Source: an uncultured Pirellulales bacterium (GTDB lineage Bacteria > Planctomycetota > Phycisphaerae > Sedimentisphaerales > Anaerobacaceae). Taken from it: DNA of 27,076 nt. Within the stretch, counting starts at the first letter, position 1. Every line of letters begins with the position of its first letter. The stretch spans positions 1-27,076 of the forward strand of contig CAZPJZ010000001.1 of the NCBI GenBank assembly GCA_964586995.1. Direction: 5' to 3'. Of the stretch, positions 2,077-24,816 are shown in pieces. The position numbers and the translations under genes are program-made. Below the pieces are notes generated by a model that did not search any database, was not told the DNA's origin, and saw only the letters and a list, made by a program, of their open reading frames with translations.

Positions 2077-2294
2077 CCTTGATTTTTCCATATCATTCGC
2101 AAGAATAACCTGTCAGGAAGAAACGCGGAATGGTCATCGCAGAGCCCGATGTATTCGGGGGCTGCAGCCAGGTATGGAAAAAACGAGGGGCAACCTCGAT
2201 ATAGAGTTCCACGCAACACTATATCGAATAGTACGCAATGACCTGCTTGTTCGATTCCAGGGGCTGCTCGAACCCTTCTTCCGTGAGGCCGAAC

Positions 2295-3269: not shown

Positions 3270-3425
3270 TGCTATAGAGCTTATGGGTATCACTCAGACA
3301 TAGTCGAACGAATAAGAATACCCAGCACAGGCTTTTAGCACTGCTGCGTCAGTTCGTTCACGGTCGGCTAAAACTGGTTAAGGGGGAAACGTCAGATAAG
3401 AGAACTGAAAATTAAGGATCGAAAA

Positions 3426-4571: not shown

Positions 4572-4623
4572 AATATCGATAGCATTAAAGGCATTGCCTT
4601 AGAAATGGCGGAAAGTTCGAATT

Positions 4624-5418: not shown

Positions 5419-5548
5419 CCTCGTGCGGCAATCGATACATAGGATATGCTTGTTGGCAAGATCCTTAATAAAGCCATCGGACAAATTCTCTTTATCCGAC
5501 CAATATACCTGCCAAAGAGATAAATTGTGTCTGCCTTTTAATATTTGA

Positions 5549-8287
5549 ATGCCCATGAAGCAAAACACTGTTGCCAGATTAGTAATTTCTTCGCTTCTCA
5601 TGATTGCGTCACTTGCTGTTTCAGTCCATGCAACGGGACAAGAGATTCTGAGTTGGAGCCAGCTTGCCGAGCTGCCGCCGATAGAAGGGCAGGTGGTGCA
5701 GCCGGGGTTAGCTGGGGCTTTCTGCGGCATTCACAATGATGCTTTGATAATAGCGGGCGGGGCCAATTTCCCTCGACCTGTCTGGGAGTCGAAGAAGGTA
5801 TGGCATGATGATATCTATGTGCTCGTAAGGCAGTCCGGAGGCTCAGCCCGAGGCGATGAGTCCTATCACTGGATAACGGGTTTCAAGCTTGAAAAGCCCG
5901 TGGCCTACGGTGCTTCGGTTTCGAGCAGGCATGGAGTCGTATGTATCGGCGGCAATGATTCCGAACGGACATATTCGCAAGTCTTCCTGCTGCAATGGGA
6001 CCCGCAGAGCAAGAAAATCACAAGCACATCGCTGCCGAGTCTACCGGATATCTGTGCGTATTGCAGTGCCGCCATGATCGCAGAGACCATCTATGTGGCG
6101 GGAGGAACAGCCGGCCTGGGTCTCGAAACAGCCAAGAGGAATTTCTGGTCCCTTGATATGTCAAGACTCAATGATCCAGGCTCGTTCAAATGGGAACAGG
6201 TTCCTGCTTGGCCGGGGCCGTCTCGGGCGTTTGCAATCGCGGTAGCACAGCACAACGGAACAACTGATTGTCTCTACGTCATAAGCGGTCGCCGGATAAA
6301 TACCGAGGAGGAAAGTAATCCACAGGTGCAGTTTCTCACGGATGTATATGAATTTGCGCCGACGAACTATGAACCGGAAAAATACAATCCGCAAACCGGC
6401 ACCTATACGGGCAAAGTGAATCCCTGGCGAAAACGCAAAGATGTTCCTCGGTGTGTCATGGCCGGTACCGCTATAAGTGTGGGACAAAGCCATATTGTGG
6501 TGCTTGCCGGCGACGACGGCAGGTTCTATTACGAGGTCGATGAACTAAAAGACGAGCATCCTGGTTTTCCAAACGAAGCGCTGCTGTATCATACGATCAC
6601 CGATACATGGACAAGCGCCGGTTCCATTCCGGTCAATCATGTGACCACCACAGCCGTTCGTTGGGGGAACAACCCGGCACGTGATCCAATAATTATTCCA
6701 AGCGGCGAAATTCGACCCAGAGTTCGCTCTGCGAAGGTCTGGCAGGTTTGCCTGCTTGGCAGTGGCGAGCGGTTCGGAATCATCGATTTTTCTGCGATTG
6801 GAATATATCTATCGGTCGTGATTGGTGTTGGGGTGTTCTTTTCTTTTCGCAATAAAAATTCGGATGACTTCTTCCGCGGCGGCCAGCGTGTTCCCTGGCT
6901 GGTGGCGGGATTGAGCATCTTTGCGACCATGCTCAGTTCCATCACCTTTATCGCCATTCCGGCCAAGGCCTATGCCACTAACTGGGTTTACTTTACATAT
7001 AATATGACGGCCATCGCTATTACGCCTTTTGTTATTCTGCTCTTTCTTCCGTTCTTTCGAAAGATCGATGCGACAAGTGCCTATGAATACCTTGAAAAAC
7101 GATTTAATCGCCCGGCGCGTCTTTTTGCCAGTGCGTCTTTTATTCTTTTCCAAATCGGACGAATGGCGGTCGTGATGTACTTGCCGGCGCTGGCTCTGGC
7201 GGCGATAACCCCTATGTCGGAGTATCAATGTATTCTTTTGATGGGGGTATTATGTATTATCTATTGCACGATGGGCGGGCTTCAGGCCGTCGTGTGGACC
7301 GATACCATACAGACTTGCGTTCTTCTGGGTGGGGCATTGGTCAGTCTTGCATTGATTGTTTCCCGTGTAGATGGCGGCGTTGGCGGTTTCATTTCGACCG
7401 CCGCCAGGCACGGTAAATTTCACATCATAAACTGGGATTTCTCTTCAATGAGCTTTACAACAACTGCTTTGTGGGTGGTTGTTTTGGGTGGAATCGCGCA
7501 AAACCTGGTTCCATATACATCCGATATGGCGGTCGTACAGCGGTATATGTCTGTTCCGGACATGTCCAGTGCGAAAAGGGCTATCTGGACGAATGCCATT
7601 GCCGTCCTGCCAGCCTCACTTTTGTTCTTTGGGGTCGGTACGGCGCTGTTTGTTTTTTACCGGGAGTATCCCGGCCGGCTCGATCCTGTCTTTAAGACGG
7701 ATGCCATCTTCCCGCTTTTCATCGCGCGTGAACTTCCAGCCGGTATCGCCGGCCTGGTGGTAGCCGGTATTTTTGCAGCGGCGCAATCAACGATTTCCAC
7801 GAGTATGAATAGTACCTCGACGGCCTTGGTTACAGATTTTATTCGGCCACTGAATCTCATCCAATCGGAGCGAGGATATTTGCGACTTGCCCGTGTATCG
7901 ACATTTGCCCTGGGTGTTTTGGGGACGGTTTTGGCCCTGTTGTTTGCTTCATCGAACATCAGGTCGCTGTGGGATCAGTTTATGAAGATACTTGGACTGT
8001 TTGGCGGTTCTATGTGCGGACTGTTCTGTCTGGGGATATTTACCAAAAGAGCAAATGGGCAGGGGGCAATTATTGGGGCTCTGGCAGGAGCGGCCGCAGT
8101 GTTTTTGGTAGAGCGGTATACAGGCATCCATTTCTTGCTTTATGCTTTTGTGGGGATAATGGTCTGCTGCCTGTGCGGTTATTTCGCCAGTGCAATGTTT
8201 CCAGCTTCGAAAAAATCTATTGCGGGACTGACCATCCATACGTTGAACAGATTTGAGATTATGAGAAAGAAGAGTTCGTATGAATAG
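5549..8287 (+). CDS. Fusion of a Kelch-repeat sialic acid mutarotase-like (NanM-type) domain and a sodium:solute symporter (SiaT-like)
   Basis: Signal peptide, then Kelch blades (GLAGAF, IIAGGANFP, AYGASVS, CIGG, YVAGG, WPGPSR, YVISGR, HPGFP, YHTITDTW, SGEIRPRVRS). From about residue 410 it is an SSS transporter (FFRGGQRVPW, ATMLSSITFIAIPAKAY, SAYEYLEKRF, VVWTDTIQ, DMAVVQRY, AAQSTISTSMNS). One uninterrupted 912-aa ORF; the start may be ATG 5555. Confidence 0.85.
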   Translation: MPMKQNTVARLVISSLLMIASLAVSVHATGQEILSWSQLAELPPIEGQVVQPGLAGAFCGIHNDALIIAGGANFPRPVWESKKVWHDDIYVLVRQSGGSARGDESYHWITGFKLEKPVAYGASVSSRHGVVCIGGNDSERTYSQVFLLQWDPQSKKITSTSLPSLPDICAYCSAAMIAETIYVAGGTAGLGLETAKRNFWSLDMSRLNDPGSFKWEQVPAWPGPSRAFAIAVAQHNGTTDCLYVISGRRINTEEESNPQVQFLTDVYEFAPTNYEPEKYNPQTGTYTGKVNPWRKRKDVPRCVMAGTAISVGQSHIVVLAGDDGRFYYEVDELKDEHPGFPNEALLYHTITDTWTSAGSIPVNHVTTTAVRWGNNPARDPIIIPSGEIRPRVRSAKVWQVCLLGSGERFGIIDFSAIGIYLSVVIGVGVFFSFRNKNSDDFFRGGQRVPWLVAGLSIFATMLSSITFIAIPAKAYATNWVYFTYNMTAIAITPFVILLFLPFFRKIDATSAYEYLEKRFNRPARLFASASFILFQIGRMAVVMYLPALALAAITPMSEYQCILLMGVLCIIYCTMGGLQAVVWTDTIQTCVLLGGALVSLALIVSRVDGGVGGFISTAARHGKFHIINWDFSSMSFTTTALWVVVLGGIAQNLVPYTSDMAVVQRYMSVPDMSSAKRAIWTNAIAVLPASLLFFGVGTALFVFYREYPGRLDPVFKTDAIFPLFIARELPAGIAGLVVAGIFAAAQSTISTSMNSTSTALVTDFIRPLNLIQSERGYLRLARVSTFALGVLGTVLALLFASSNIRSLWDQFMKILGLFGGSMCGLFCLGIFTKRANGQGAIIGALAGAAAVFLVERYTGIHFLLYAFVGIMVCCLCGYFASAMFPASKKSIAGLTIHTLNRFEIMRKKSSYE

Positions 8288-9812
8288 ACGCGATTTTCTC
8301 CGATTATCAGTGCTTAGCATAACATCAGTGTTTTCACGCAGGCTTATGGCATCTGAGCGTAAGCCTAATGTGCTCTTCATTGCCCTGGACGACATGAACG
8401 ATTGGATCGGTTCTTTAGGCGGATATTCAGAAAACGTGCACACACCGAATTTCGACCGTCTTGGGCGCAAGGGCGTCACATTCACCAACGCCCACAGTCC
8501 GTCGACTGTTTGCAACCCATCACGAACAGCGATAATGACCGGATTGCGGCCATCCACAACCGGCATATATAACAATGGACAATGGTGGCGGCCTGCTCTG
8601 CCTGATGTTGTGACTATGCCTGAGCACTTTCGAAAAAGCGGTTACCACGTTGAAGGCGGAGGAAAGATTTTTCACCATACGCTCGGTAACAACCCACCCG
8701 GGATTTGGGACAATTATTATCCCCAGGTTCAAGACGACCCGTGGCACTATGATTATCCCGTTCCAGGACAACATGAACCTAAGAAAGGCTTGCATTGGCC
8801 GCAAGGTTTTCCACTAAATGGTATTGAAAACGTAAGACTTGGAAAGAAACCGCCCGGTAACTACCGCTCATTTGACTGGGGCCCTTTTGACAAACCGGAT
8901 ATTCAGATGGGAGATGGTCAGATGGTCCAGTGGGCGATAGATTTTCTAAAAAGACCGCACGATAAACCGTTCTTTTTGGCCGCTGGAATTTACCGTCCGC
9001 ATCTGCCATGGTATGTCCCGAAAAAGTATTTTGATTTATATCCTTTAGATAGCATAAGACTGCCCGAGGTTAAAAGCGATGATCTGGACGATGTCCCTGC
9101 CGTAGGTAGAAAGATGGCCGAAGCTCGACATGCCGATTTCGAGCTCGTAAAGAAGGCAGGGAAATATAAAGAGGCAGTCCAGGCGTATTTGGCTTCCATC
9201 AGTTTTGCCGATGCGCTGGTTGGGCTTCTATTAGATGCTTTGGAGAAAAGCTCGTACCGAGACAATACGTTCATCGTAGTTTGGTCCGACCATGGCTGGC
9301 ATTTGGGCGAGAAGGGGGCATGGCACAAGCAGACACTTTGGGAACGAGCAACGCGCGTCCCGTTCTTTATCGTGGCGCCGCCGGTCACACAGCCTGGGTC
9401 GGTTTGTAATCACCCTGTAAACCTGATCGATATTTACCCGACACTTGTTGATTTATGTGGCTTGAAAGCAAATACGAAATTAGATGGGATCAGCCTCGTT
9501 CCACTTCTGAAAAATCCGGAAGCTGCCTGGGAGCGCCCTTCGGTCATTACGTATGAACGAGGAAACCACGCCGTCAGGTCTGAGCGATGGCGGTATATCC
9601 GCTACAATGACGGCACAGAAGAACTGTATGACCATGACAACGACCCCCACGAGTGGACGAACCTGGCAGGAGATTCAAACTTTGATTCAGCCAAGCAGAA
9701 GTTGGCGAAATGGCTCCCGAAAAGTGATGCGCCGCCGGCTCTTTCAAAGAGCGCTTACCATTTTGATCCGGATACCTACTCTTGGAGCAGGAAGGAGAAG
9801 TCACGGCAATGA
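8280..9812 (+). CDS. Cys-type sulfatase (iduronate-2-sulfatase/choline-sulfatase-like), Tat signal
   Basis: MNRRDFL twin-arginine signal; PNVLFIALDD; CNPSR-TAIMTG formylglycine motif; GIYRPHLPW; WSDHGWHLGEK. Overlaps the upstream gene by 8 nt. Confidence 0.92.
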   Translation: MNRRDFLRLSVLSITSVFSRRLMASERKPNVLFIALDDMNDWIGSLGGYSENVHTPNFDRLGRKGVTFTNAHSPSTVCNPSRTAIMTGLRPSTTGIYNNGQWWRPALPDVVTMPEHFRKSGYHVEGGGKIFHHTLGNNPPGIWDNYYPQVQDDPWHYDYPVPGQHEPKKGLHWPQGFPLNGIENVRLGKKPPGNYRSFDWGPFDKPDIQMGDGQMVQWAIDFLKRPHDKPFFLAAGIYRPHLPWYVPKKYFDLYPLDSIRLPEVKSDDLDDVPAVGRKMAEARHADFELVKKAGKYKEAVQAYLASISFADALVGLLLDALEKSSYRDNTFIVVWSDHGWHLGEKGAWHKQTLWERATRVPFFIVAPPVTQPGSVCNHPVNLIDIYPTLVDLCGLKANTKLDGISLVPLLKNPEAAWERPSVITYERGNHAVRSERWRYIRYNDGTEELYDHDNDPHEWTNLAGDSNFDSAKQKLAKWLPKSDAPPALSKSAYHFDPDTYSWSRKEKSRQ

Positions 9813-11278
9813 AAAGACGCACCTTTCTAAAGATATTGGGTATAGGAGCCTTATCACAGGCGTTTCCTGCTCTCTCATGGTCACAGAAGGCGAAAAGGCC
9901 CAACGTTCTGTTTATTGCAATCGATGATCTGCGCGGCGCCGTAGGCTGCCTGGGTGACAGGATTGCGAAAACAGCGAACATGGACAAACTGGCAAGACAC
10001 GGGACTGTTTTTCTAAACGCTTATTGTCAGCAGGCAGTGTGTAATCCGTCAAGAGCTTCCGTGATAACCGGCCTGCGCCCGGATACGCTCAAGGTGTGGG
10101 ACTTGAAAACGCATTTCCGCGAGCACCACCCGGATATTGTAACACTTCCACAATATTTCAAGCAGCATGGCTACTATACCCAGAGTTTCGGCAAGGTTCT
10201 CCACGGCCAGGGAGCGCCGTCGACGGACCCACCGAGCTGGTCGGCGGAGCCAGTCTGGGACCACTGCACCAGGCACGACCTGTATGCCCTGCCTGAAAAC
10301 CAGCCGGGCAGCGAAAACGACAAACAAGCCGCCGCAGAATGTGCAGATGTGCCGGATGAAGCCTACGTTGACGGCAAGGTGGCTGGCAAAGCAGTAAAAA
10401 AGATTGAAGAGCTCGCAGAAAATGGTAAGGCGTTCTTCCTGGCAGTAGGTTTTCGCAAACCGCATTTGCCTTGCTCTGCTCCTAAGAAATACTGGGATAT
10501 GTATAAGCGAAAAACTTTCGAGAACAATGATTGGCCAGCACTTAATAGACCAAAAGACGGGCCGGATATTGCCCTGCACAATTGGAGGGAGCTTCGAGGT
10601 TATACCGACATCCCAGACATCGGGGATGTGCCTGCGGAAAAAGCAGCCGAAGTTCGCCACGGCTATTACGCTGCTACAAGTTATACCGATGCTCAAATTG
10701 GCAAGCTGATTGATACACTTGATAGATTTGGCTTGCGAGAAAACACTATTATCTGCCTCTGGTCAGATCACGGCTTCCACCTTGGTGAGCATACCCTTTG
10801 GTGCAAAACCAGTAATTACGAATTTGATGCACGGGTACCATTGATCATATCTGCACCGCAAAAGAAGAAGGGGCAAGTCTGCAGAAAGCTGGTGGAACTC
10901 GTTGATATGTATCCTACGTTGGTTGAGTTGGCCGGATTGGCTGTACCAGGCGGTTTAGAGGGGACTTCTATGGTCCCATTGCTCGATGACCCACAGCGAG
11001 GTTGGAAAAAAGCAGCCTTCACACAGTTTCCGCGCCCGCCGTACTATAAGAAAAGTTTTGACGCTATGGGCTACTCGGTTCGCACCGAGCAGTTTCACTA
11101 TATAGAATGGATTGATGTCAAGAAAAAGCAGCCGATAGCGTCTGAGCTGTATGACCATCGTTCAGACCCTTATGAGCTTACAAATCTTGCACTGAAAAAG
11201 GAACAGCAAACGACTGTCAGGCAGCTTAGCAAACTTCTTGAGGATGGCTGGAAGACCGCATTGCCGGCAAGGAGATAA
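9809..11278 (+). CDS. Cys-type sulfatase (iduronate-2-sulfatase-like), Tat signal
   Basis: MKRRTFL signal at ATG 9809 (AAGGAG RBS, ATGA overlap with the previous stop); PNVLFIAIDD; CNPSR-ASVITG; GFRKPHLP; WSDHGFHLGEH. Confidence 0.92.
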   Translation: MKRRTFLKILGIGALSQAFPALSWSQKAKRPNVLFIAIDDLRGAVGCLGDRIAKTANMDKLARHGTVFLNAYCQQAVCNPSRASVITGLRPDTLKVWDLKTHFREHHPDIVTLPQYFKQHGYYTQSFGKVLHGQGAPSTDPPSWSAEPVWDHCTRHDLYALPENQPGSENDKQAAAECADVPDEAYVDGKVAGKAVKKIEELAENGKAFFLAVGFRKPHLPCSAPKKYWDMYKRKTFENNDWPALNRPKDGPDIALHNWRELRGYTDIPDIGDVPAEKAAEVRHGYYAATSYTDAQIGKLIDTLDRFGLRENTIICLWSDHGFHLGEHTLWCKTSNYEFDARVPLIISAPQKKKGQVCRKLVELVDMYPTLVELAGLAVPGGLEGTSMVPLLDDPQRGWKKAAFTQFPRPPYYKKSFDAMGYSVRTEQFHYIEWIDVKKKQPIASELYDHRSDPYELTNLALKKEQQTTVRQLSKLLEDGWKTALPARR

Positions 11279-11281
11279 ACA

Positions 11282-12793
11282 GTGACGCCAACAAGAAGAC
11301 AACTCATGAAATCTGCATTGGGTACGGCGATGGCCTTTGGATTCCCAGGATTATCCGGTGCACGCGAAAGAGGCCAATCAAAACCGAACATTCTGCTCAT
11401 GGTGGCAGAAGACCATGGTCTGCAGTTGAGCTGCTATGGTGATAAACATATTTCCACCCCGAATTTGGATGCCCTGGCAAAGACGGGGGTCCGATTTGAA
11501 AATACGTATGTTACCCAGGCTGGCTGCAGCCCATCAAGGGCTTCGATACTCACGGGGCAGTATCCTCACAAGAACGGCCAGATCGGCTTGGCTACACATG
11601 GTTTACGTATGTACAAAGACAACATGCCTAATCTTACAACTTATCTCAAAGGCGCTGGCTATCGAACAGAGATCATCGGAAAGATACATGTCAATCCGGA
11701 ATCTGCCTTCGTGTTCGACTTCAAGGCATTTCCAAAAAGCAATTTCAATAACCGTCCTGTAAGGCAGTTCGCCCGCTCATCTGGAGAATTCTTCCGGGCT
11801 TCGGATGAACCGTTCCTAATGTGGATAAGCTTCCCAGATGCGCATCGTCCCTTCCACGACCAGCAGGATGGTATCCCCGCCAGGTTCATGGGACCATATG
11901 ATGTTGAGACCCTGCCTATGGTTGGCGTATCTACTCGGCAGACACTCCAGACGACAGCGAGCTATTACAACTGTATGCAGCGTTTAGACGTAGCTGTTGG
12001 GATGGTTCTAAAGGAATTGGCCAATTCCGGGAAGGCTGATAACACACTTATCATCTATCTTTCAGACCACGGCCCTGATTTCCCTCGCGCGAAAAAGACA
12101 ATCCGTGAAGGCGGAAGCCGTGTGCCGATGATAATGAGATGGACGGGACATTTGCCGAAAGGGAAAGTCGAGTCTCGTTTGGTTTCCAGCCTTGACATCC
12201 TGCCGACCATACTTGAAATAGTTGGCACAAAACCACATCAAAATGATCTGGACGGCCGCTCCTTGATGCCTTTGTTCTACAAGGAATCCGCACCATGGCG
12301 AGAATACCTGTTCACCGAATTCACGTTGCACTGGCCTGAAACATATTATCCGGGTCGTGCCGTACGGGACAGCCGTTTCAAGCTTGTCCACAACCTGTTG
12401 CCTCATCGCGAAAATCCGGTATATGACATCTACCTTGTTAAACAAATGCCTAAGACGTTTACCCCCGAGGAACTCAAGGATATGCCAGAACACGTTCGGG
12501 AGGCATACAAAATTTTTCGGCAGCCTCCGGAATTCGAGTTGTATGATCTTCAAAATGATCCGTGGGAGTTTCACAACCTTGCCAAAGACTCACGCTATGT
12601 GGAACAGTTCATACGTCTGAAAAAACGCTTGGCCGAATGGCAGGAAGAAACGAATGATCCCCTGCGGCACAAGCACATCCTTGACAAATTCACAACCGAG
12701 AATGACGCCACAATGACCAGTGGAAAATATATAAGAAAGAAATCTGGGCAATGGAAGTATTCCGAATACTTCTTTGCAGGAGATGATATGTGA
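11282..12793 (+). CDS. Cys-type sulfatase (N-sulfoglucosamine sulfohydrolase/sulfamidase-like), Tat signal
   Basis: GTG start, TRRQLM signal; PNILLMVAED; CSPSR-ASILTGQYPH; DAHRPF; SDHG; FPRAK. Confidence 0.9.
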   Translation: MTPTRRQLMKSALGTAMAFGFPGLSGARERGQSKPNILLMVAEDHGLQLSCYGDKHISTPNLDALAKTGVRFENTYVTQAGCSPSRASILTGQYPHKNGQIGLATHGLRMYKDNMPNLTTYLKGAGYRTEIIGKIHVNPESAFVFDFKAFPKSNFNNRPVRQFARSSGEFFRASDEPFLMWISFPDAHRPFHDQQDGIPARFMGPYDVETLPMVGVSTRQTLQTTASYYNCMQRLDVAVGMVLKELANSGKADNTLIIYLSDHGPDFPRAKKTIREGGSRVPMIMRWTGHLPKGKVESRLVSSLDILPTILEIVGTKPHQNDLDGRSLMPLFYKESAPWREYLFTEFTLHWPETYYPGRAVRDSRFKLVHNLLPHRENPVYDIYLVKQMPKTFTPEELKDMPEHVREAYKIFRQPPEFELYDLQNDPWEFHNLAKDSRYVEQFIRLKKRLAEWQEETNDPLRHKHILDKFTTENDATMTSGKYIRKKSGQWKYSEYFFAGDDM

Positions 12794-12863
12794 AGATGAG
12801 ACCCATTTCATGTGGTCTAAGTCGTCCCCCTCTTTTGTATAGCTTAGAAGGAGAGTGACAAGT

Positions 12864-14666
12864 ATGAATAAGCTAAATAGACGCCAGTTTTTGCAGGTTG
12901 GCACGGCTTCAGGCGCGGTCTTGGTTTGGGGATCGGCAAAGAGTTCATCCAGGGCACAGCAATCCAGCAAGATAAGCACAAAAAGCGAAAGACCGAATAT
13001 TCTTTGGATATGCACCGATCAGCAGCGCTGGGACACGATTGGTGCGCTTGGAAATCATTACGTTCACACTCCCAATATTGACCGTATTGTAAACGAAGGT
13101 GTAGCGTTCGATCATGCATTCTGCACGTCGCCGATCTGCACCCCCAGCCGCGCCGGTTTCCTGACCGGCATGTATCCCTGCGCAGTCAAAGCATGTAAGA
13201 ATGGCGCGGAATTATGGGCCGAACAGGCCCCGCTCGTGACAAAGCTCTTTAGAGACATGGGTTACGTATGCGGTCTGGCCGGTAAGCTTCATCTGGCATC
13301 CGCAATGAAGAACGACAGGGAAACCCGGCCAAGAGACGATGGATATTCGGTATTTCACTATAGCCATAGTCCACATCAGGGGGGCCAGAAAAATGATTAT
13401 CTGGTATGGCTGGAGAAACGCGGCTATTCGTATAAAGACCTTGGCAAACTGGATGGCCAGGCACACGCACGCCTTCACCAGACAACGTGGTGTACCGACC
13501 GCGCCATAGATTTCATACACGCACATAAAAAGCAGCCCTGGCTTTTCAGTGTCAACATCTATGATCCTCACCCACCTTTCAACGCACCACCCTCGTATGT
13601 GTCCCGGTACGACACTTCTTCTTTGCCGGGCCCTGCATTTAGAGATTCTGATATCGAAGAGAAAGGTCGCTTCAGCAGAATCGTGCTTCAGAAGAAGCCC
13701 AGGCATTACTCGCAGTCCGATGCCAAACAGCACCAGGCTGACTATTGGGCCCAGATCGATCTTATCGACGAGAACGTGGGACGCCTCCTTTCGACGCTCG
13801 AAGAGACCGAGCAGGACAAAAGCACCGTAATCATCTTCACCGCCGACCACGGCGATATGTGCGGAGATCACGGAATCCGCGCCAAGGGCTGCCGCTTCTA
13901 TGAGGGCCTGATCAGAGTGCCGCTCATATTCTGGTCCCCAGCCCGGTTCAATAAAGGACTTGTCAGCAAGGCACTGGTCGAACTGACGGATATCGCGCCT
14001 ACTTTGCTGGATATTGTAGGAGAGCGAATTCCCAGTCGTATGCAGGGAAGAAGTCTTCTACCGATTCTTCGCGGCGAGGCGAATCCTGACAGACATCGCG
14101 AATTTGTGCGCTGCGAATTCTATGATGCGCTTGACCCAGAGGGACTGCTCCCTGCCTTTGCGACCATGATCCGAACAAGAAGTCTAAAGCTTGTCGTGTA
14201 TCACGGACACACGCTCGGCGAGCTGTTCGATCTGTCGAACGACCCAAAAGAGTTTGACAACGTGTGGGATCAGCCGGACTATGAAGAGAAGCGCCTCGTC
14301 CTTCTCAAACGTTGTTTCGATGCCACAGTCCTTGCATGCAGTGCGCAAATGCCTCTGCTTGAATCGCAATCTGGCGTTTCGGCTATGGCGGGATTGCAGG
14401 AGGGAGAAAGTGTTAGAAACGTCGGCCGTATATCGGCAGCAGGGACACGGTGGGAAACGGTGTTCCAGAGCGACTCCTACCGCATGGTGGTTGACCATAT
14501 GGGAAGGAGCTCTGCGTTGTTCGACTTGAGGAAGGATTCCGGCAAGGAATCGAATGTGTGGGGTGATGCCATGTACCGCAAGGTACGTTTTGATCTGCTC
14601 AAGAAATGTTTTGATGCCACAGTCTTTGCGATCGACACAGGGCCTCAGCGGGTGGCACGTTATTGA
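12864..14666 (+). CDS. Cys-type sulfatase (choline-sulfatase-like), Tat signal, tandemly duplicated C-terminal domain
   Basis: MNKLNRRQFL signal (ATG 12864 is better spaced from AAGGAG than GTG 12855); PNILWICTDQQR; CTPSR-AGFLTG; DPHPPF; ADHGD. Two copies of the ...LFDL..D..E..NVW....Y...R..LLK.CFDATV tail. Confidence 0.9.
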   Translation: MNKLNRRQFLQVGTASGAVLVWGSAKSSSRAQQSSKISTKSERPNILWICTDQQRWDTIGALGNHYVHTPNIDRIVNEGVAFDHAFCTSPICTPSRAGFLTGMYPCAVKACKNGAELWAEQAPLVTKLFRDMGYVCGLAGKLHLASAMKNDRETRPRDDGYSVFHYSHSPHQGGQKNDYLVWLEKRGYSYKDLGKLDGQAHARLHQTTWCTDRAIDFIHAHKKQPWLFSVNIYDPHPPFNAPPSYVSRYDTSSLPGPAFRDSDIEEKGRFSRIVLQKKPRHYSQSDAKQHQADYWAQIDLIDENVGRLLSTLEETEQDKSTVIIFTADHGDMCGDHGIRAKGCRFYEGLIRVPLIFWSPARFNKGLVSKALVELTDIAPTLLDIVGERIPSRMQGRSLLPILRGEANPDRHREFVRCEFYDALDPEGLLPAFATMIRTRSLKLVVYHGHTLGELFDLSNDPKEFDNVWDQPDYEEKRLVLLKRCFDATVLACSAQMPLLESQSGVSAMAGLQEGESVRNVGRISAAGTRWETVFQSDSYRMVVDHMGRSSALFDLRKDSGKESNVWGDAMYRKVRFDLLKKCFDATVFAIDTGPQRVARY

Positions 14667-17442: not shown

Positions 17443-18192
17443 TTACGTGCTGATTCGGCTCTGTTGCTTGTGGGCCTGGTTGTGGGCCTTGCGGTGCTGG
17501 TGAAGGTGCAGCTTGATGTCGATGATGGTCTTGATGAGGATCAGGACGATGAGGACGCCGGCAGGGGAGCCGATGGCGGCTGAAATAAAGCCGCCGAATA
17601 GGACCGCAAAGTGCATCACCACCACGCGTGCGTAGGGGTCACTCATCAGCTTGGCTGCTTTGGCGGTGGCGTATTCATGCTTTATCAGATAATTGTGCAC
17701 GAACGAGACGCCGTGGCTGAGAAAGAGCGCAGCGATGGCGTACTTCATTGGTGGAGTCAGGGTCGTCCAGCCGTGCATTATGACCCCGATCAGCAACTGG
17801 ACGAAGACCAGAAAGCAGGGCCAGGCGTGGCCCGTTGGAAAAACACTTTCGCCTTCGCCTTTGCCGAAGAGAAAGAAAACGAACATTCCGTGCACAGCGC
17901 AGAACCCGCCAAAGTGGACAACAAAGAAGGGAATCATAAAGAGCTTGCCCAGATGTTCGATGGGGTGGGCCACTTTCGCAGCGGCCATTTTGAGGACGTT
18001 GTAAAAGCCGATGACCAGGTTCTCGGCCCAGTAAAGTAAGACGATGTAGAAGGCGTTCCAGCCGAAGACAGCGACGCCGTAAATCGGCAGCACATTGGCA
18101 GTGACAAGCGCTACCAAAGGGACGTTGGTCAGGTGTTCTTTGTCGAGCAGCCTGGCGATAGCTTTGAGTTGTGCCGGAGATTTCTCAGCCAT
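17443..18192 (-). CDS. DUF6498-like integral membrane protein
   Basis: LVTANVLPIYGVAVFGWNAFYIVLLYWAENLVIGFYNVLKM, FFVVHFGGFCAVHG, LFLSHGVSF, PYARVVVMH, LILIKTIID; several TM segments. Start moved to ATG 18192 so it does not overlap the upstream gene. Confidence 0.7.
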   Translation of the reverse strand: MAEKSPAQLKAIARLLDKEHLTNVPLVALVTANVLPIYGVAVFGWNAFYIVLLYWAENLVIGFYNVLKMAAAKVAHPIEHLGKLFMIPFFVVHFGGFCAVHGMFVFFLFGKGEGESVFPTGHAWPCFLVFVQLLIGVIMHGWTTLTPPMKYAIAALFLSHGVSFVHNYLIKHEYATAKAAKLMSDPYARVVVMHFAVLFGGFISAAIGSPAGVLIVLILIKTIIDIKLHLHQHRKAHNQAHKQQSRIST

Positions 18193-18242
18193 GAGGGTTT
18201 TATCGTCACGCAGGTCAACTTGCTTGCTTCGAATCCATATTT

Positions 18243-20306
18243 TTAGCTGTTTATCAGTTGGTAGGCCCTGATAAGTTCGCCTACGCTCCATGCCTGGGCG
18301 ACGCAGCCTTTCGGCAGGTGGGGGCTGTCGCCATCAAATATCTCTGAGACGCTGCCCAGGCAGGCTTGCTCGGTTAGATGCGAAAGCAGCGGCTGAATGA
18401 ATTCGGCGGCCTTTTTCTTACTCGCCCGGCTGAAGCCGTTGACCTTAAGATAGGCTTCCACGAACGGTCCGATCAGCCAGGGCCAAACTGTGCCCTGGTG
18501 GTAGGCCTGGTCTCGGTCTTTCTGTGGGCCGGTGTATTTGCCCTTGTACTCGGGATGGGCGACGTTTAGTGTTCGCAGACCGTAAGGCGTGAGCAGCTCT
18601 TTGTGTACCGTATCAACAATAGAGGTTTGCTGCTGTGGCGATAACGGCGGGGCAAACCGAAGGGATACGGCAAATATCTGGTTCGGGCGAAGGCTCGCAT
18701 CGGCTGTACCATCCGGAAGGACACAATCGTTCAGGTAGCCTGCCGCTTCGTTCCAGAACAGCGAGCAGAAACTGCCGCCCACCTTTTCTGCCATAGTCTG
18801 GTAGTTGTGTGCGTGTTCGCTGTTGCGGCTGGCGTAAAAGTGGGCCAGCTCGCAAAGGCCATTATACCACAGGGCGTTGACCTCGACCGCTTTGCCGTAT
18901 CGCGGCGTAAAAGCCACGCCGTCGTACTTGGCGTCCATCCAGGTCAGTTGCGTTTCCTGGCTGCCTGCTGTCATAAGGCCGTCTGCGTCGGCGTGGATGC
19001 CGAACCGCGTGCCGTTGTGATAGGACTGGACGATCCAGCGGATGGTAGGCAGAAGCTGCTGCGTAAAGGTTTGTGAGTCGCCGCTAACATCCAGGTAGGC
19101 AAAGGCCGCGTTTATAAACCAGAGAGACGCGTCCACACTGTTAAAGAAGGCGGTGTCACTGTAATCATCAAATCGGTTAGGGATCATACCCTGGTCTGCT
19201 GCCTGCGCAAACGTGCACAGGACGGATTTTGCCTCTTCGAATCTGCTGGTTGCCAGTAATAGGCCGGGCAGAGCCACAAAGGCATCTCTGCCCCAGTCGG
19301 CGAACCATGGGAAGCCGGCCAAGACAGTGACCCGTCGCTCGTGCTCCGTGCCCCGAGCGACAATCGACGAGCGACGAGCGATGAACTGGTCTGCGGCCAG
19401 GCAGAGCACTTTGGACTTTTCATCTTTGGGTCTGGCGGCAGTAATCACTTCATTGTGATGTCTGTGCAAATCGTCCTTGACTGCATCAAGCTCGTATTGT
19501 GTATTGCGTATTGCGTATTGTGGTCTTTTTTCGCACGACGCATCACGCATTACGCATGGCGAAAGGCTCGCCCAGAAGACAACCTCGGTTGGCTCTTCTA
19601 TCCGGCACTTGAAAAAACCGGGTGTCCACAGATCCTCGCTGAAGTTCTGGCCTCTTTCCCTGTCACAACGGTAAATGAAATTGAACCACCATTGCGGGTC
19701 CTTCTCAAAAGTAGCGCCCGGACAGCTTAAAAACAGCCCGCAGCTTCCCGGTATGTCGTGGCGGACCAGCAGGCCGTCACCGAACCACGCTGAACACAAT
19801 GGCGTGTACGACCTTTGCAGACTGTGAAAGTCTCGCATACCGACAAAGGGGCGCATCACAAATTCCGCGGGGCCATCCACCCTTGTAAAGCTGTATGCTA
19901 TAGCGACCGTATCGGCATCCCGGACCAGATACAGGGATTTAGTGAGTTTGAGCTTGTTCAATTCATAACCGAAATGCACGCCGGTGTCTTGATGGAATTG
20001 CGTTAGAAAGCCAAACCCTGCCGGGGCGAATTTGTCGGGAAACTCAAAAGTTGAAAGGTTGAATATCTTCTGCTCAAGTATGACCATCTCCAGGCAGTTG
20101 GCCAGAGCCATTATCCTGTTGACCGGCGGATTGATGGCTCCTACGAGAAGTCCGTGATAGCCTCGTGTGTTGCAGCCGACAATCGTTGATGATGCGTAGC
20201 TGCCGCGCTCGTTTGTTAACAGCCATTCCTTGGTCAATAGGTCGTCGATAGCGTGGTTCCTTGTTGACGTGGACACAGTTTGTGTAGTTTTAGTCTTTTG
20301 CAGCAT
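18243..20306 (-). CDS. Glycogen debranching enzyme (amylo-alpha-1,6-glucosidase, GH133-type)
   Basis: EWLLTNERGSYASST, RGYHGLL, AGFPWFADWGRDAFVALPGL, GMIPNRF, NSVDASLWF, LTWMDAK, PRYGKAVEVNALWYN, LRPNQIFA, LLTPYGLRTL, YHQGTVWPWLIG, SEIFDG, AQAWSV. Start at ATG 20306 (GGAG upstream). Confidence 0.92.
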   Translation of the reverse strand: MLQKTKTTQTVSTSTRNHAIDDLLTKEWLLTNERGSYASSTIVGCNTRGYHGLLVGAINPPVNRIMALANCLEMVILEQKIFNLSTFEFPDKFAPAGFGFLTQFHQDTGVHFGYELNKLKLTKSLYLVRDADTVAIAYSFTRVDGPAEFVMRPFVGMRDFHSLQRSYTPLCSAWFGDGLLVRHDIPGSCGLFLSCPGATFEKDPQWWFNFIYRCDRERGQNFSEDLWTPGFFKCRIEEPTEVVFWASLSPCVMRDASCEKRPQYAIRNTQYELDAVKDDLHRHHNEVITAARPKDEKSKVLCLAADQFIARRSSIVARGTEHERRVTVLAGFPWFADWGRDAFVALPGLLLATSRFEEAKSVLCTFAQAADQGMIPNRFDDYSDTAFFNSVDASLWFINAAFAYLDVSGDSQTFTQQLLPTIRWIVQSYHNGTRFGIHADADGLMTAGSQETQLTWMDAKYDGVAFTPRYGKAVEVNALWYNGLCELAHFYASRNSEHAHNYQTMAEKVGGSFCSLFWNEAAGYLNDCVLPDGTADASLRPNQIFAVSLRFAPPLSPQQQTSIVDTVHKELLTPYGLRTLNVAHPEYKGKYTGPQKDRDQAYHQGTVWPWLIGPFVEAYLKVNGFSRASKKKAAEFIQPLLSHLTEQACLGSVSEIFDGDSPHLPKGCVAQAWSVGELIRAYQLINS
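19334..19382. repeat. Palindromic heptamer array inside the debranching-enzyme CDS
   Basis: gtcgctc-gtgctcc-gtgcccc-gagcgac-aatcgac-gagcgac-gagcgat; gtcgctc is the reverse complement of gagcgac. Confidence 0.65.
19494..19559. repeat. Palindromic heptamer array (66 nt) inside the debranching-enzyme CDS
   Basis: gtattgt-gtattgc-gtattgc-gtattgt, a 10-nt spacer, then cgcacga-cgcatca-cgcatta-cgcatgg; the two arms are imperfect reverse complements. Confidence 0.75.
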
Positions 20307-20385
20307 TAACACGGCGTTACTCCCGGGACACGACCACGATCTATAAATTGGACCTGCTCTGGGCATCAGAAGCGAGTCAGATCAT

Positions 20386-21633
20386 CTATTGTACCGTTTG
20401 CAGGTGGGGCGGGTTTTTGTTTTGCGATAGGCGGCCAAATGCGCCGTTGGAGGCTGACTGTGAACATCGGCTGTGCAGGTGGTTCAGCACGTTCATAAAG
20501 TTTATATAGGAATCGTAGGGCGAATCATAGGGATTGAAATACTTGTGCACGTCGCCGTCGGCAAAGTACTTGGTGCACATGTAGTAGAAGTGGTCCGACG
20601 CTTGCAGTCTTCGCCAGTCTGCAATGATTCTCTCGTCGCCGGTTTCTTTGATCTTTTGCTCCAGCCGATACAGCTCATGAATCGCGTTGGACTGCATCGG
20701 GTTGCCGAGCCACGCAGACAGGTCTCTTTCGGTATCCGCCCAGCTTATGATATGGGGGACATCTACCGTATCGACGGCCTCGTAACTTTGAACGACCTCG
20801 CTGGGGGTCTTAAAGTCGTTGCCGGGACGCCGCAGAACCTCTTCGGGCAACTGCCGCATGAAGTCGAATATCCCCGTATCCTCCCATTGATGCTCGCCGA
20901 ACGTCTCGTAATCCATGAACAGGTTCACTACACTGCCGCTGCCATTGATATCGCTTATCCATTTAGCGAATTTTTCTGCCGTCAAAGGCCACTCAATCCA
21001 GTTGCGGTTGGAGAACCTAAAGGCTATATCGTCGCTGAGACAGTAGTTTTTCAGCAGCAGTTTTAATTTGGTGCATCCCTTGGGGCGGTAGACAAAGTTG
21101 GGACTGCGCAGGCCTAAGATGTGGTCTGCTCCCTCGGTAATTATGGCGTCGAAGCAGCCCATCGACTCAACAAGGGCGGCCAAATCATTGTTGTATATCA
21201 GTTCCGTGTTTCTGAAGACCCGCGGCTTTTGGCCGAACAGACGCTCGGTCGTTTCGATGTGTTTGTTTACCTGATCCGCGAATTCGTTGCGCGAGTACAA
21301 AAAACTCAGACTGTGGTAGTAAGTTTCCGCCAGGAATTCGACGCAGCCGGTTTCTGCCAGCGCGTCGAAAGTGCTCATAACTTCCGGGCAGTACTGCTGG
21401 ATCTGCTCCAGCAACATGCCGGTCAAGCTGTAGGCTACTTTGAACCGACCGCCGCACCGCCGGATCAGCCTCAAGAGCAGGCGATTAGTCGGCAGATAGC
21501 ATTTGTTGGCGACCTTCCTGCAGATTGATGCGTTCTTGTAGTCGTCAAAATACCGGTCGCTGTTGTCGAATGCCGTGTAGTGTCTCAATCGTAACGGCTG
21601 ATGCACCTGAAAGTAAAAACACACCGAAGGCAT
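20386..21633 (-). CDS. Glycoside hydrolase family 57 (alpha-amylase-like)
   Basis: CFYFQVHQP (CSR1), ETYYHSL, FRNTEL (nucleophile Glu), DYETFGEH (acid/base Asp), LQASDHFYYM. Start at ATG 21633 or GTG 21642. Confidence 0.92.
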   Translation of the reverse strand: MPSVCFYFQVHQPLRLRHYTAFDNSDRYFDDYKNASICRKVANKCYLPTNRLLLRLIRRCGGRFKVAYSLTGMLLEQIQQYCPEVMSTFDALAETGCVEFLAETYYHSLSFLYSRNEFADQVNKHIETTERLFGQKPRVFRNTELIYNNDLAALVESMGCFDAIITEGADHILGLRSPNFVYRPKGCTKLKLLLKNYCLSDDIAFRFSNRNWIEWPLTAEKFAKWISDINGSGSVVNLFMDYETFGEHQWEDTGIFDFMRQLPEEVLRRPGNDFKTPSEVVQSYEAVDTVDVPHIISWADTERDLSAWLGNPMQSNAIHELYRLEQKIKETGDERIIADWRRLQASDHFYYMCTKYFADGDVHKYFNPYDSPYDSYINFMNVLNHLHSRCSQSASNGAFGRLSQNKNPPHLQTVQ

Positions 21634-21703
21634 TTCTGGCACGGACTTAAAAGCTCAGTGTTGAATCCATCGTCTTGGCGTTTTCTCTTTTTGGGACCTT
21701 CCA

Positions 21704-22993
21704 TCAAACCGCAGCCAGCATTTCTTCATAGATTCTTGCGCATTTGGCTGCGGAATCTTGCCAGCGTAGTTTTCGTACCTCAAAGTTGCCGTGCTGCCGC
21801 AGCGTAACCCCCAAGGGCGGATATTTCAGCACGGCGATAATCTTGTTGGCCATCTCATCAATGTCCCAGAAGTCTACTTTCAAGGCGTGTCTGAGCACTT
21901 CCGAGACGCCGCTTTGCTTGCTTATGATGACCGGCACATCGTTGCCCAAGGCCTCCAGAGGTGCGATGCCGAACGGCTCCGATACGGAGGGCATCACGTA
22001 CAGATCAGCCATCCTATATATCCGGCGAACGTCCTCGCCTCGTAGGAATCCGGTGAAGAGCACCTTGTGGCCGATACCCAGTTGGGCAGCCAGCTCGATT
22101 GCACGGTGCATCATGTCCCCGGAGCCGGCCATGACGAACTTGACGTTGTCCATGACTTCGAGGACTTTCCTGGCGGCGGCGAGGAAATACTCCGGGCCCT
22201 TTTGCATGGTAATGCGGCCCAGGAACAGGACGATTTTCTCGTCTTTGCCGATGATGTTTTCGGCCAGGGCCGCATTGGAGTTTTGTTCCACGCCATTATA
22301 GACCACTTCGACCTTTTCGCGGCTAATACCATACCGGCTAATAATGATACTGCGTGTGTACTGGCTGACCGCAATGACCTTGTCGGCTCTTTCCATGCCC
22401 CTTCTCTCGATGTCGTAAATCATTTGATTGACATGTTCGCCGCTGCGGTCGAATTCTGTGGAGTGCACGTGGACAATGAGCGGTCTTTGGCTCAGTTCCG
22501 CCACGGCAACTGCCGCCGGAAACGTCATCCAGTCGTGAGCGTGAACGACATCAAAATCCTCATCTTGGGCCAATTCACTGGCCAAAATGGCGTAACGGTT
22601 GACCTCCGTGTACATGTCACCACTGTAGTCGATGCTTCCCATAGACTCGATGGGCCAGCCGATCCGGCTGGCAAGGGCTTCTCGCTTGCGTCTGAGGGCT
22701 TCTTCGATCCGCTGTTGGTGAGCGTGTGGGGTCGAATACGGCTGCAATGTTGAGGCAATCGTGCGAAAGGTCACGTTTTTTAGCTGGCTGAGTTGAAGCG
22801 TGTCTGCTGTGATCTCGCCGCCAGGGCTTAACACCCTTACGTGGCTGGCATATCGTCCGTCGACCGCCCTTGGCAGAACGAACGTTATTGTTATGCCCAG
22901 CTCGCCCATGGCCTTGGTAAGCCCATAACAAGCCGTACCCAGCCCCCCACTGATGAACGGAGGAAACTCCCATCCTAACATGAAGACTTTCAT
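21704..22993 (-). CDS. GT4-family glycosyltransferase (putative glycogen/alpha-glucan synthase)
   Basis: MLGWEFPPFISGGLG, HAHDWMT, HVHSTEFDRSG, FLGRITMQKGP, PSVSEPFGIAPLEA; GGAGG RBS. Clustered with GH57 and the debranching enzyme. Confidence 0.92.
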   Translation of the reverse strand: MKVFMLGWEFPPFISGGLGTACYGLTKAMGELGITITFVLPRAVDGRYASHVRVLSPGGEITADTLQLSQLKNVTFRTIASTLQPYSTPHAHQQRIEEALRRKREALASRIGWPIESMGSIDYSGDMYTEVNRYAILASELAQDEDFDVVHAHDWMTFPAAVAVAELSQRPLIVHVHSTEFDRSGEHVNQMIYDIERRGMERADKVIAVSQYTRSIIISRYGISREKVEVVYNGVEQNSNAALAENIIGKDEKIVLFLGRITMQKGPEYFLAAARKVLEVMDNVKFVMAGSGDMMHRAIELAAQLGIGHKVLFTGFLRGEDVRRIYRMADLYVMPSVSEPFGIAPLEALGNDVPVIISKQSGVSEVLRHALKVDFWDIDEMANKIIAVLKYPPLGVTLRQHGNFEVRKLRWQDSAAKCARIYEEMLAAV

Positions 22994-23558
22994 ATAGTCC
23001 TCCGCGGGCTCTGTGTCATAACTGTCCTTTCACGCAGGGCTTAACGCTCGGCTCTTTCCGGCCGTGAACTCGATCAGCAGTTTGCTCCAAGGTCCTCCCG
23101 TATATGAACCTTGATTATGATTCGCTGTCGAGCACGTTATCGGCAAGAACCCTTTTACCCTTAACTGCGCGCGGGCAAAAAAAGATGCGTTCGCCCAAGC
23201 TGCTATTTATATCATCGGGATTTTGGGTAAAATAAGTTCAACAAATTTTGCTCAAAACGTAGCTTTTGGTACTGTGAATCCGGATTTTATAGGCCATAAC
23301 CGGATTGGAAAAGGCTCTCAACGCCGCCTTTTGCCCCTGCCTTCAGGGTAGCACCGTCGGCTCGGCCAACCCAAAGCCAACCAGACGGTAAACCGCAGCG
23401 GGCGCCAAGCAATAATCTCGTTGCAGAACTGGTTACATCACGCTACAAAACGGGCTGAACTAAACCTTTTCGCGGTTCAGGAATTGAAACGGCCTGCGTC
23501 AAACAAGGTTACCGCCAGCCCAATGCGTGCCACCGAACGACGTTCGTCGAGAGCCGGC

Positions 23559-23744
23559 CTATAAATCCTGTGCTCTGACCGTGCTGCGACGGTTGGCTTT
23601 TGTTCGGACAACGGCAGCATCGAGCATCGAGTAAACACGTTCACTAATTGCTCCGAGAGCCTCCGATGACGTCATCATCTTTTTGCTCTTGATGTACGCC
23701 TTCACTTTGCTTGCCACGATCAAAGGTTCTCTCTTTTTTGCCAT
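23559..23744 (-). CDS. Bacterial singlet histone-fold protein (Bd0055/face-to-face-type histone)
   Basis: 61 aa MAKKREPLIVASKVKAYIKSKKMMTSSEALGAISERVYSMLDAAVVRTKANRRSTVRAQDL after a GGAGG RBS. It has the LIVxSKVK alpha1 start, the MxTS loop, a long alpha2 and the RxTVxxxD histone clamp, matching the Bdellovibrio/Leptospira histones as I recall them. Confidence 0.85.
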   Translation of the reverse strand: MAKKREPLIVASKVKAYIKSKKMMTSSEALGAISERVYSMLDAAVVRTKANRRSTVRAQDL

Positions 23745-23823
23745 TCCGCAAATCCTCCCTGTCAAAATTTAAACCTTGTAGGCCGGCACCAATCCTTCGG
23801 TCCGGCACGCTATTAGAGTCCTT

Positions 23824-23852
23824 ATTACACAAACCCATAGCATTTTCAACAA
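23824..23852 (-). promoter_or_regulatory. Candidate sigma70-type promoter for the histone gene
   Basis: Minus strand TTGTTG-17 nt-TGTAAT in an AT-rich stretch, with the -10 element about 80 nt upstream of the ATG. Confidence 0.3.
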
Positions 23853-24055
23853 AAAAATGCGCCCAAATGCTAAATTTTTGTGTTAATAGCGCCGATAGGC
23901 ACAACAAGGATCAAGTAAGGTCCGACCGGCAAACAGTGTTCTTTCTGGTTGGCGGTTTCTTGAGCTGAACGGCTCAGATGGTTTATTGTGACCAGGCCTT
24001 TCACACGGCCCGTTCCTGAGCAGCGGTTCAAGTCGCTTTTGGTTGGAGGAATAAA

Positions 24056-24376
24056 ATGGCAAAGCGCTCGAAGAAAGGTCATAAATCACAGGCCAGACTG
24101 CAAGGATTTGTGGTCGTTGCTTTTGCCAAGGATTGGGAGCAGGCCAGAGACTATGAGACTGTGCTCAAAGTCAACGATATCCCCGCCGTTATCAGCTCAC
24201 AAGAGGAATGCCCGGCGGGTACTAAGGAGATTGCCGTAATGGTTCCCGAGGATTGCCTTGATGAAGCACACGTCATAATCGAGTCGCAGAACGCTTATGA
24301 CGACTTCTATGATTTTGCCATGGAAGAGGAACATGACGCTGATTTCGGCAGCGACCTTTTCGAGGATGATTTTTGA
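24056..24376 (+). CDS. DUF2007-like (putative signal-transducing) small protein with a basic N-terminus and an acidic C-terminal tail
   Basis: GGAGG RBS; EQARDYETVLKVNDIPAV ... IAVMVPEDCLDEAHVII resembles the DUF2007 core. The last 25 residues contain 12 D/E. Confidence 0.6.
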   Translation: MAKRSKKGHKSQARLQGFVVVAFAKDWEQARDYETVLKVNDIPAVISSQEECPAGTKEIAVMVPEDCLDEAHVIIESQNAYDDFYDFAMEEEHDADFGSDLFEDDF

Positions 24377-24489
24377 GCTTCAGTCTTTCAGGCCTGTACA
24401 AGTCAGCGGCGTCCAAGTACGGCTGACCGGCTTGGCGGAGTGAGGCTTGGCTGAGAGGTGAGCACAGTAAGACTGTGGGGTGGATAGAA

Positions 24490-24816
24490 ATGGGTGCAGA
24501 AAATCTGCCAGAACGACGCGGTCATAGAGACCGTAGGCATAGTGTGGTTGACAGGCGATTGGGGTTGGACCGCCGACGTGGTCCCGGAAGGCGCAGAACG
24601 GATGAGCGAAAGTCCGCGGAAGAGGGACAGATGTCGGACGAACAGTTCGAGTTCCTCATGGCGGTTGACGAGTACAAGAGAAGAAACGCCAGGCCGTTTC
24701 CGACCTGGACGGAGGTTCTCGAGGTCATAAAGGCCCTCGGCTACCGCAAAGTGGCTGAGCCCCAGCCGCTCCAGCAGTTCAAGAAAAAGCCCGAACAGGA
24801 CAAAGTGCCAGTGTGA
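24490..24816 (+). CDS. Conserved hypothetical protein, Arg-rich (D/E/G)RR-repeat N-terminus, planctomycete-type
   Basis: [34 protein letters not shown] followed by [34 protein letters not shown], a motif I recall from planctomycete hypothetical proteins. Start at ATG 24490 or GTG 24475. Confidence 0.7.

Follow-up and report, generated by a model that had tools for sequence, protein, structure and literature searches.

The window, by which we mean the whole 27,076-nucleotide stretch of DNA analysed here, encodes on its reverse strand (23559-23744) a small basic protein which, judged by its sequence, is a tail-less bacterial singlet histone homologous to the α3 histones of solved structure, and whose motifs support its placement in the face-to-face (FtF) subgroup of the α3-truncated histones. 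We assign a probability of about 0.8 to this family membership taken jointly with a tetrameric, DNA-wrapping mechanism. Our confidence in the α3/FtF family alone, which comes from the sequence, is higher than this figure, and that in the protein being a DNA-wrapping tetramer and a major nucleoid protein, which comes from analogy, is lower.

The coding sequence was defined from its translation, its PDB matches, the structural model and the ratio of nonsynonymous to synonymous change, and comprises 61 codons (MAKKREPLIVASKVKAYIKSKKMMTSSEALGAISERVYSMLDAAVVRTKANRRSTVRAQDL) followed by TAG at 23561-23559. The product has a mass of 6.8 kDa, a pI of 10.55 and a net charge of +9, with 14 lysine and arginine against 5 aspartate and glutamate residues. 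The initial annotation had described a 61-residue basic histone-like protein at this place, and its coordinates, its start and all the motifs quoted for it were found to be present. Searches of the PDB with the single sequence (phmmer) and with a profile built from 48 homologues identified HLp of Leptospira perolatii (9QT0), a tetrameric and DNA-wrapping histone, as the best match among solved structures (phmmer E-value 1.8e-15 over residues 4-60; profile 1.7e-24; BLASTP 65.9 bits). The dimeric HBb/Bd0055 (8CMP, 8FVX; phmmer 5e-5, profile 1.5e-8, BLASTP 39.3 bits) and the archaeal face-to-face histone HTkC (9F2C; 6.6e-3, 5.7e-6 and 32.7 bits, respectively) were also matched, and nucleosomal histones gave no significant match by sequence with either phmmer or the 48-homologue profile. 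Thus both Bd0055 and the Leptospira histone, against which a search had been proposed, were recovered, and the description as a prokaryotic singlet histone agrees with these matches and with the fold comparison.

AlphaFold2 modelling of the monomer from the 48-sequence alignment predicted one helix at residues 5-22, a second at 26-50 and a turn at 58-60, at moderate confidence (mean pLDDT 80, pTM 0.46). The modelled chain has the helix-loop-long helix-loop-helix pattern of the histone fold, as had been anticipated for it. The top nine Foldseek matches in the PDB were all to HLp (probability 1.00), HBb and HTkC, and those that followed were eukaryotic H4/H2B and other histone-fold chains. Superposition of the monomer model on HLp was loose (TM 0.55-0.60, rmsd 8.6 Å, Foldseek E-value 1.2e-3), as is expected because the model is an isolated chain of an obligate dimer. 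We take the predicted fold as corroboration, and not as strong structural proof, of the histone identity. The RxTxxxxD motif with its R-D clamp is present in the protein as R53-S-T55-V-R-A-Q-D60.

The α3-truncated histones have an α3 of 3-4 residues and an α2 that is 4-5 residues shorter than the nucleosomal one (Schwab et al. 2024, PMC11390915). The window protein stops one residue past D60, its modelled α3 is the single turn 58-60 and its modelled α2 has 25 residues, which agrees with the earlier remark that it possesses almost no α3 helix. From this short C-terminus the initial annotation had also proposed the FtF tetramer class; the class stands, but the reason does not, as a truncated α3 is common to FtF and HBb-type bacterial dimer histones (PMC11390915, PMC12701072). 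What defines FtF histones is a torus-shaped tetramer together with the conserved HMM-logo residues R48, N52, R54, T56 and D61, the first two of which are absent from HBb-type bacterial dimer histones (Schwab et al. 2024, PMC11390915). The window histone carries the corresponding signature R-x3-N-x-R-x-T-x4-D at R47, N51, R53, T55 and D60, with a spacing identical to that published, and all five residues are invariant in the 48 homologues, whereas HBb carries S and D at the first two positions. As the R47/N51 motif is present and invariant, the window histone is assigned to the FtF class. Among 154 sequences (the query, three solved histones and 150 family representatives), the signature was found in 120, including the query and HLp, and HBb showed RxTxxxxD only. 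By BLASTP, 134 of the 150 family representatives were closer to HLp, as is the window histone itself by about 30 bits.

The tetramer of HLp is held by a network in which R49, S52 and N53 face R55, T61 and F63, and bacterial FtF histones with a predicted tetramer conserve R49/N53/R55 (Hu et al. 2025, PMC12701072). When the HLp contacts were mapped on a pairwise alignment, in which the window residue number equals the number in that paper minus 2 (checked by residue identity), the triad was found to be kept as R47/N51/R53 and the RD clamp as R53-D60, and the dimer-core positions were all hydrophobic. Three of the six hydrogen-bonding residues of the HLp tetramer differ (S52 to A50, T61 to Q59 and F63 to L61), and each of the three replacements is nearly invariant within the clade, as judged from the 48 homologues. 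These substitutions would be compatible with an HBb/Bd0055-type dimer that bends or coats DNA and forms no wrapping tetramer, a reading we consider unlikely. It also draws on the significant match to HBb, on the truncated α2 and α3, SK motif and RD clamp that are common to both classes, and on the occurrence of bacterial dimer histones in Planctomycetota too (PMC11390915). However, bacterial dimers are by definition without the R47/N51 pair, which in the window histone is present and invariant, the match to HLp is the better one, and HBb has S and D at these very positions; the window histone neither lacks the pair nor clusters with HBb. The sequence thus supports an FtF histone, which would be expected to form a tetramer.

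For this FtF histone a mode of action can be proposed by analogy with HLp. Two monomers would pair head to tail into a histone-fold dimer through their crossed α2 helices, and two such dimers would meet face to face to complete a ring-shaped homotetramer, the closure running through the C-terminal end of α2, loop L2 and the one-turn α3 (R47, N51, R53 and the C-terminus). In HLp nine residues contact the DNA backbone, namely A13, S14, K15, K17, K21, T27, G29, T56 and T57 (PMC12701072). Seven of them are identical in the window histone (A11, S12, K13, K15, K19, T25 and T55), and of the remaining two, the change from T56 to S54 is conservative and that from G29 to S27 is a difference. A continuous basic rim formed by A11-S12-K13, K15, K19, T25 and S54-T55 may hold the DNA backbone independently of its sequence, with roughly 60 bp of DNA wrapped around the ring, as shown for HLp. 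The conserved HLp contacts and the net charge of +9 suggest that the window histone may bind and wrap DNA in this way. It would act as a nucleoid-associated, chromatin-organising protein, and may be abundant or have a global role in the nucleoid. Bd0055 and the L. interrogans histone have been shown to be major nucleoid proteins, and the strong Shine-Dalgarno sequence, the conserved promoter-like block with A/T tracts and the presence of the gene in at least 435 species-level genomes are indirect signs that the window histone may be one as well.

HLp (PDB 9QT0/9QT1/9QT2; Hu et al. 2025, PMC12701072), which has the orthologue LA_2458 in L. interrogans, is the closest characterised relative and shares 56% identity with the window histone over 54 aligned residues. 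The two belong to the same length class (63 and 61 residues) and both end one residue past the clamp aspartate. They differ in their phyla, in the N-terminal segment, which is 2 residues shorter in the window histone, and in the three peripheral tetramer contacts at A50, Q59 and L61. The histones of Sedimentisphaera are 66% identical to the window protein in the fold region, but carry an N-terminal tail of about 43 residues rich in Lys, Thr and Ala (AKKT repeats), whereas the window protein is tail-less. HBb of Bdellovibrio bacteriovorus (8CMP, 8FVX, 9EZZ) is 40% identical over 52 residues and shares the α3-truncated family, the SK motif, RxTxxxxD and the short α2, but it is strictly dimeric, bends rather than wraps DNA and has S and D at the FtF interface. 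HTkC of Thermococcus kodakarensis is likewise a torus-forming tetrameric α3 histone, matched at the fold level with a probability of 0.98, but its identity is only about 30-32%, it belongs to the archaeal cluster and it has E at the position of N51. HMfB and H4/H2B have the same histone fold and the same RxTxxxxD/RD clamp and are matched at the fold level only, H4 chains for example with a TM of about 0.52 over 34 residues. Nucleosomal histones have a longer α2 and an α3 of about 10 residues, and their tetramers are joined by a single four-helix bundle, unlike the FtF ring with its two interfaces (PMC12701072).

The mechanical ORF list opens the histone frame at TTG 23765, giving 68 residues, just as the initial annotation had pointed out. 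A Shine-Dalgarno sequence GGAGG (23754-23758, minus strand, within AGGGAGGAT) lies 9 nt 5' of ATG 23744, as befits the strong ribosome-binding site reported earlier, and 68 of 70 orthologous leaders have GGAG at the same place. As the GGAGG would fall inside the extension from TTG 23765, that start is disfavoured. All 48 aligned homologues begin with MAKK or MAKT, nearly all of them are 61-62 residues long, and no upstream in-frame alternative start exists in 42 of 71 orthologous loci. The true start, as read from these sequences, is ATG 23744. [quoted passage not shown]

Further upstream, a -10-like element TGTAATAA (23822-23829, minus strand), which may be read as TGTAAT (23829-23824) or TAATAA (23827-23822), shows the highest conservation of any block in the upstream alignment. 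The -35-like element TTGAAA (23844-23849, minus strand) is TTGCAA in most orthologues, and this hexamer was found in 43 loci with a column conservation of at least 90%. TGTAAT or TATAAT stands 14-15 nt past a TTGCAA-type hexamer in 48 of 71 loci (15 nt in 41 and 14 nt in 7). This pair is preceded by a block of A/T tracts, CAAAAATTTAGCATTT...ATTTTTTTG (23850-23880, minus strand), which across the 71 orthologous upstream regions takes the form CAAAAATTTAGCA...ATTTTTTTG with a column conservation of 80-99% and appears UP-element-like, or may possibly be an operator. The candidate promoter which the initial annotation had ascribed to the gene is backed by the conserved TTGCAA-N15-TGTAAT block that follows the A/T tracts and probably acts as the promoter of the histone gene, but a consensus sigma-70/terminator scan flagged neither a promoter nor a terminator on the minus strand for this gene.

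In most orthologous loci the histone gene is directly followed by a canonical terminator with a GC hairpin and a T-run, AAGCCGTTCCGC...GCGGAACGGCTTTTTTT. Folding of the window places a weak terminator-like hairpin, CUGAACC-GCGAAAA-GGUUUAG within a larger stem and then GUUUUG, at 23445-23480 (minus strand). Compared with most of the 80 related loci, the terminator thus appears degenerate within 23445-23500, where a weaker hairpin followed by GUUUUG is left. Between the histone gene and that of the glycosyltransferase lies a spacer of 565 bp (22994-23558, minus strand), which contains, at about 23300-23160 on the same strand, a second strongly conserved block of A/T tracts with TTGAAC and a TATAAT-like element, similar in style to the histone promoter-like block. 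Together with a conserved leader of about 190 nt, it probably provides the glycogen operon with its promoter and 5' UTR. With a promoter-like block of its own, a terminator, and the second promoter-like block before the glycosyltransferase (GT4) gene, the histone gene looks monocistronic, that is, a transcription unit of its own.

Folding of the predicted 5' leader in the window also gave a hairpin at 23782-23806 (minus strand) in which GCCGGACCGA pairs with UUGGU-G-GCCGG around an AGGA loop. The 8-bp helix was named by hand and its support is moderate. Across 70 leaders, 74% of its cells pair, against 24-52% in slid controls; the observed pairing was reached in none of 500 shuffles, and double changes were found in 7 of the 8 pairs. 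GGA lies inside the hairpin loop in 54 of the 70 leaders (AAGGAT in 26), and the hairpin is most often situated about 28-42 nt upstream of the Shine-Dalgarno GGA; in the 80 related loci it precedes the histone ATG by about 45-75 nt. Its stability is unremarkable (z-score -0.7), single-sequence folds being no more stable than shuffles, and RNAalifold predicted no consensus structure on the 70 leaders. Rfam gave no match, either in the whole window at the gathering threshold or in 22900-24100 at E≤1, and a tRNA scan found none. The GGA-loop hairpin is reminiscent of two-site CsrA-type targets, or of a stem-loop that stabilises the mRNA at its 5' end.

The gene stands in a conserved setting, with orf106 and then orf113 diverging from it on one side and the GT4, GH57 and debranching enzyme genes following it on the other, and this order is kept in 66-79 of 80 loci. 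Such conservation would suit a protein with the histone fold whose role is local and not architectural, for instance as a specific regulator of the glycogen operon or of the divergent small genes, which we hold to be very unlikely. All 80 loci are of a single lineage, and protein identity of 60-90% extends over the entire block, so that we read the synteny as one of descent and not as evidence of a functional link. Moreover, the histone gene is equipped with a conserved promoter-like block and, in most loci, with a canonical terminator of its own, and a second conserved promoter-like block stands before the GT4 gene. The hlp gene of Leptospira lies in a quite different neighbourhood (SMC, MAP and DUF350), whereas the window histone adjoins glycogen genes, and the contacts that the protein shares with HLp are made to the DNA backbone. 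The glycogen genes and the acidic orf106 had been considered as functional partners by synteny and were rejected as unsupported, given that the loci are of one lineage and the block is conserved as a whole. A chromatin-organising role remains the preferred reading of the protein. Each locus, in the window and the 80 flanking regions, has one histone gene, and no second histone gene, HU or CsrA was found in any of them.

The neighbouring orf106 (24056-24376, plus strand; 106 residues) is divergent from the histone gene in 76 of the 80 related loci, and its product begins with a basic N-terminus and ends in a C-terminal tail, DDFYDFAMEEEHDADFGSDLFEDDF, that is very acidic and rich in aromatic residues. 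It showed a sub-threshold DUF2007-like match (E-value 0.034) and no sequence match in the PDB. A role as a partner of the histone would be purely speculative, since inheritance alone may account for the synteny. In orf113 (24475-24816, plus strand) only the C-terminal 61 or so residues are conserved, in 73 of 80 loci, and its true start is probably at 24631; it is called at 61 residues by JGI and at 113 by ENA. Its upstream part is an Arg-rich stretch of DRR repeats, and it matched no Pfam family. On the other side, a glycogen/α-glucan cluster spans 17443-22993 on the minus strand and consists of a starch-synthase-like glycosyltransferase of GT4/GT5 type (21704-22993), an enzyme of family GH57 (20386-21642), a glycogen debranching enzyme in which both GDE_N and GDE_C are present (18243-20366) and a DUF6498 membrane protein (17443-18291), whose gene overlaps that of the debranching enzyme by about 50 nt.

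Comparison of the histone coding sequence with 71 orthologous ones gave a pS of 0.75, a pN of 0.09 and a pN/pS of 0.12. Synonymous change is near saturation across the orthologues, and the low ratio indicates a real gene under strong purifying selection. In the alignment of 48 homologues, 25 columns are invariant, and 1639 database proteins match the window histone at E≤1e-3. Most of these copies are labelled 'hypothetical protein' and some are called at 66-85 residues. Pfam and NCBIfam scans of the protein returned no match even at E≤10, because of which the family is invisible to routine annotation; the gene is indeed easily missed or given a wrong start, as had been stated at the outset. 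That the frame is a chance ORF, or a histone-fold relic without DNA binding like the DUF1931 pseudodimers, is scarcely credible: its shortness, the missing Pfam/NCBIfam match and the name 'DUF1931 domain-containing protein' given to HLp by its PDB depositors would allow it, but the pN/pS, the near-saturated synonymous change and the invariant columns speak against it, a chance ORF being effectively refuted, and the protein is a singlet of 61 residues and not a doublet, with no Pfam match, a net charge of +9 and the DNA-contact residues of HLp retained.

The closest proteins are 80-93% identical to the window histone, nearly all of 61 residues, and come from metagenome-assembled Planctomycetota (Phycisphaerae, Sedimentisphaerales); among the closest homologues aligned, the identity is 79-93%. 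When 185,579 species-representative genomes were scanned with two peptide patterns, 435 proved to encode a close relative, and the best 80 of these 435 carry Planctomycetota, Phycisphaerae, Phycisphaerales, Sedimentisphaerales, Anaerohalosphaeraceae or 'uncultured Pirellulales' labels. The nearest contigs, JGI 3300033991 and ENA ERZ27315314, share 88% nucleotide identity over 9.4 kb. The wider family (E≤1e-3) falls into 257 clusters at 50% clustering and includes natural doublets and N-terminally extended forms. Of the 41 cluster representatives with an extension of at least 20 residues, 19 have at least 25% Lys/Arg, and the others look like mis-called starts. N-terminal tails 20-100 residues long and reminiscent of linker-histone tails were observed in many relatives; they consist of Lys-rich repeats of the AKK(A/T)P type, as in P0123, P0148, P0160, P0167 and the two Sedimentisphaera proteins, or of S/T/R-rich repeats in P0151. 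Natural doublets of about 120-128 residues also occur among the relatives, for example P0136, P0146 and P0147.

Histone-fold genes have been reported in 1.86% of bacterial genomes, with a 'notable phylogenetic persistence' in Planctomycetota (Hocher et al. 2023), a phylum which is among the four bacterial phyla where FtF histones concentrate (Schwab et al. 2024, PMC11390915; Hu et al. 2025, PMC12701072). Supplementary Table 1 of Hocher et al. 2023 lists proteins of Phycisphaerae bacterium SG8_4 (KPK45077.1) and SM1_79 (KPL22212.1), together with the 100-residue histones of the cultured Sedimentisphaera cyanobacteriorum (AQQ09326.1) and S. salicampi (ARN56793.1). In the parts of the supplements of Schwab 2024 and Hu 2025 that were available to us, no Phycisphaerae or Sedimentisphaera entries were found. 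KPK45077.1 is an orthologue of the window histone, because it is identical to the histone of one of the 80 loci (L075), which lies between the same neighbours and shows 79% identity with the window protein. The novelty attached to the gene by the initial annotation was thus overstated: orthologues from the same lineage were already catalogued, and the window histone confirms and slightly extends the published surveys.

The current understanding of bacterial histones is unchanged by the window histone, although the feature is a rare one and lends itself well to experiments. Throughout the whole order the family is extremely conserved, in its residues as well as in its expression signals, and its members escape Pfam and NCBIfam, so that in annotation they usually stand under an uninformative label and sometimes with a wrong start. 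To our knowledge, only HBb and HLp have been characterised among bacterial histones, and we know of no planctomycete histone that has been studied experimentally. Cultured Sedimentisphaera, in which the same core bears a tail, offers a tractable system for histone-based chromatin in this phylum. A bolder proposal would make the histone the principal and essential chromatin protein of Sedimentisphaerales, controlled by its leader hairpin in a CsrA-like manner and furnished with H1-like tails in related lineages; that all of this holds together seems distinctly unlikely. If it did, the GGA-loop hairpin and the Shine-Dalgarno GGA would constitute a CsrA-type two-site target that sets the histone level post-transcriptionally and couples nucleoid compaction to carbon status, and the H1-like tails, Lys-rich and N-terminal, would serve to tune the shared core in related lineages.

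At a distance from the histone gene, the window also carries a cluster for the utilisation of sulfated/sialylated glycans (2238-14666, plus strand). It encodes a DHDPS-family (NanA-like) lyase, a BNR sialidase-like protein and an HpcH/HpaI aldolase, a 912-residue fusion of an N-acetylneuraminate-epimerase-like Kelch part with a sodium:solute symporter (5549-8287, plus strand), and four consecutive sulfatases (8280-14666, plus strand).
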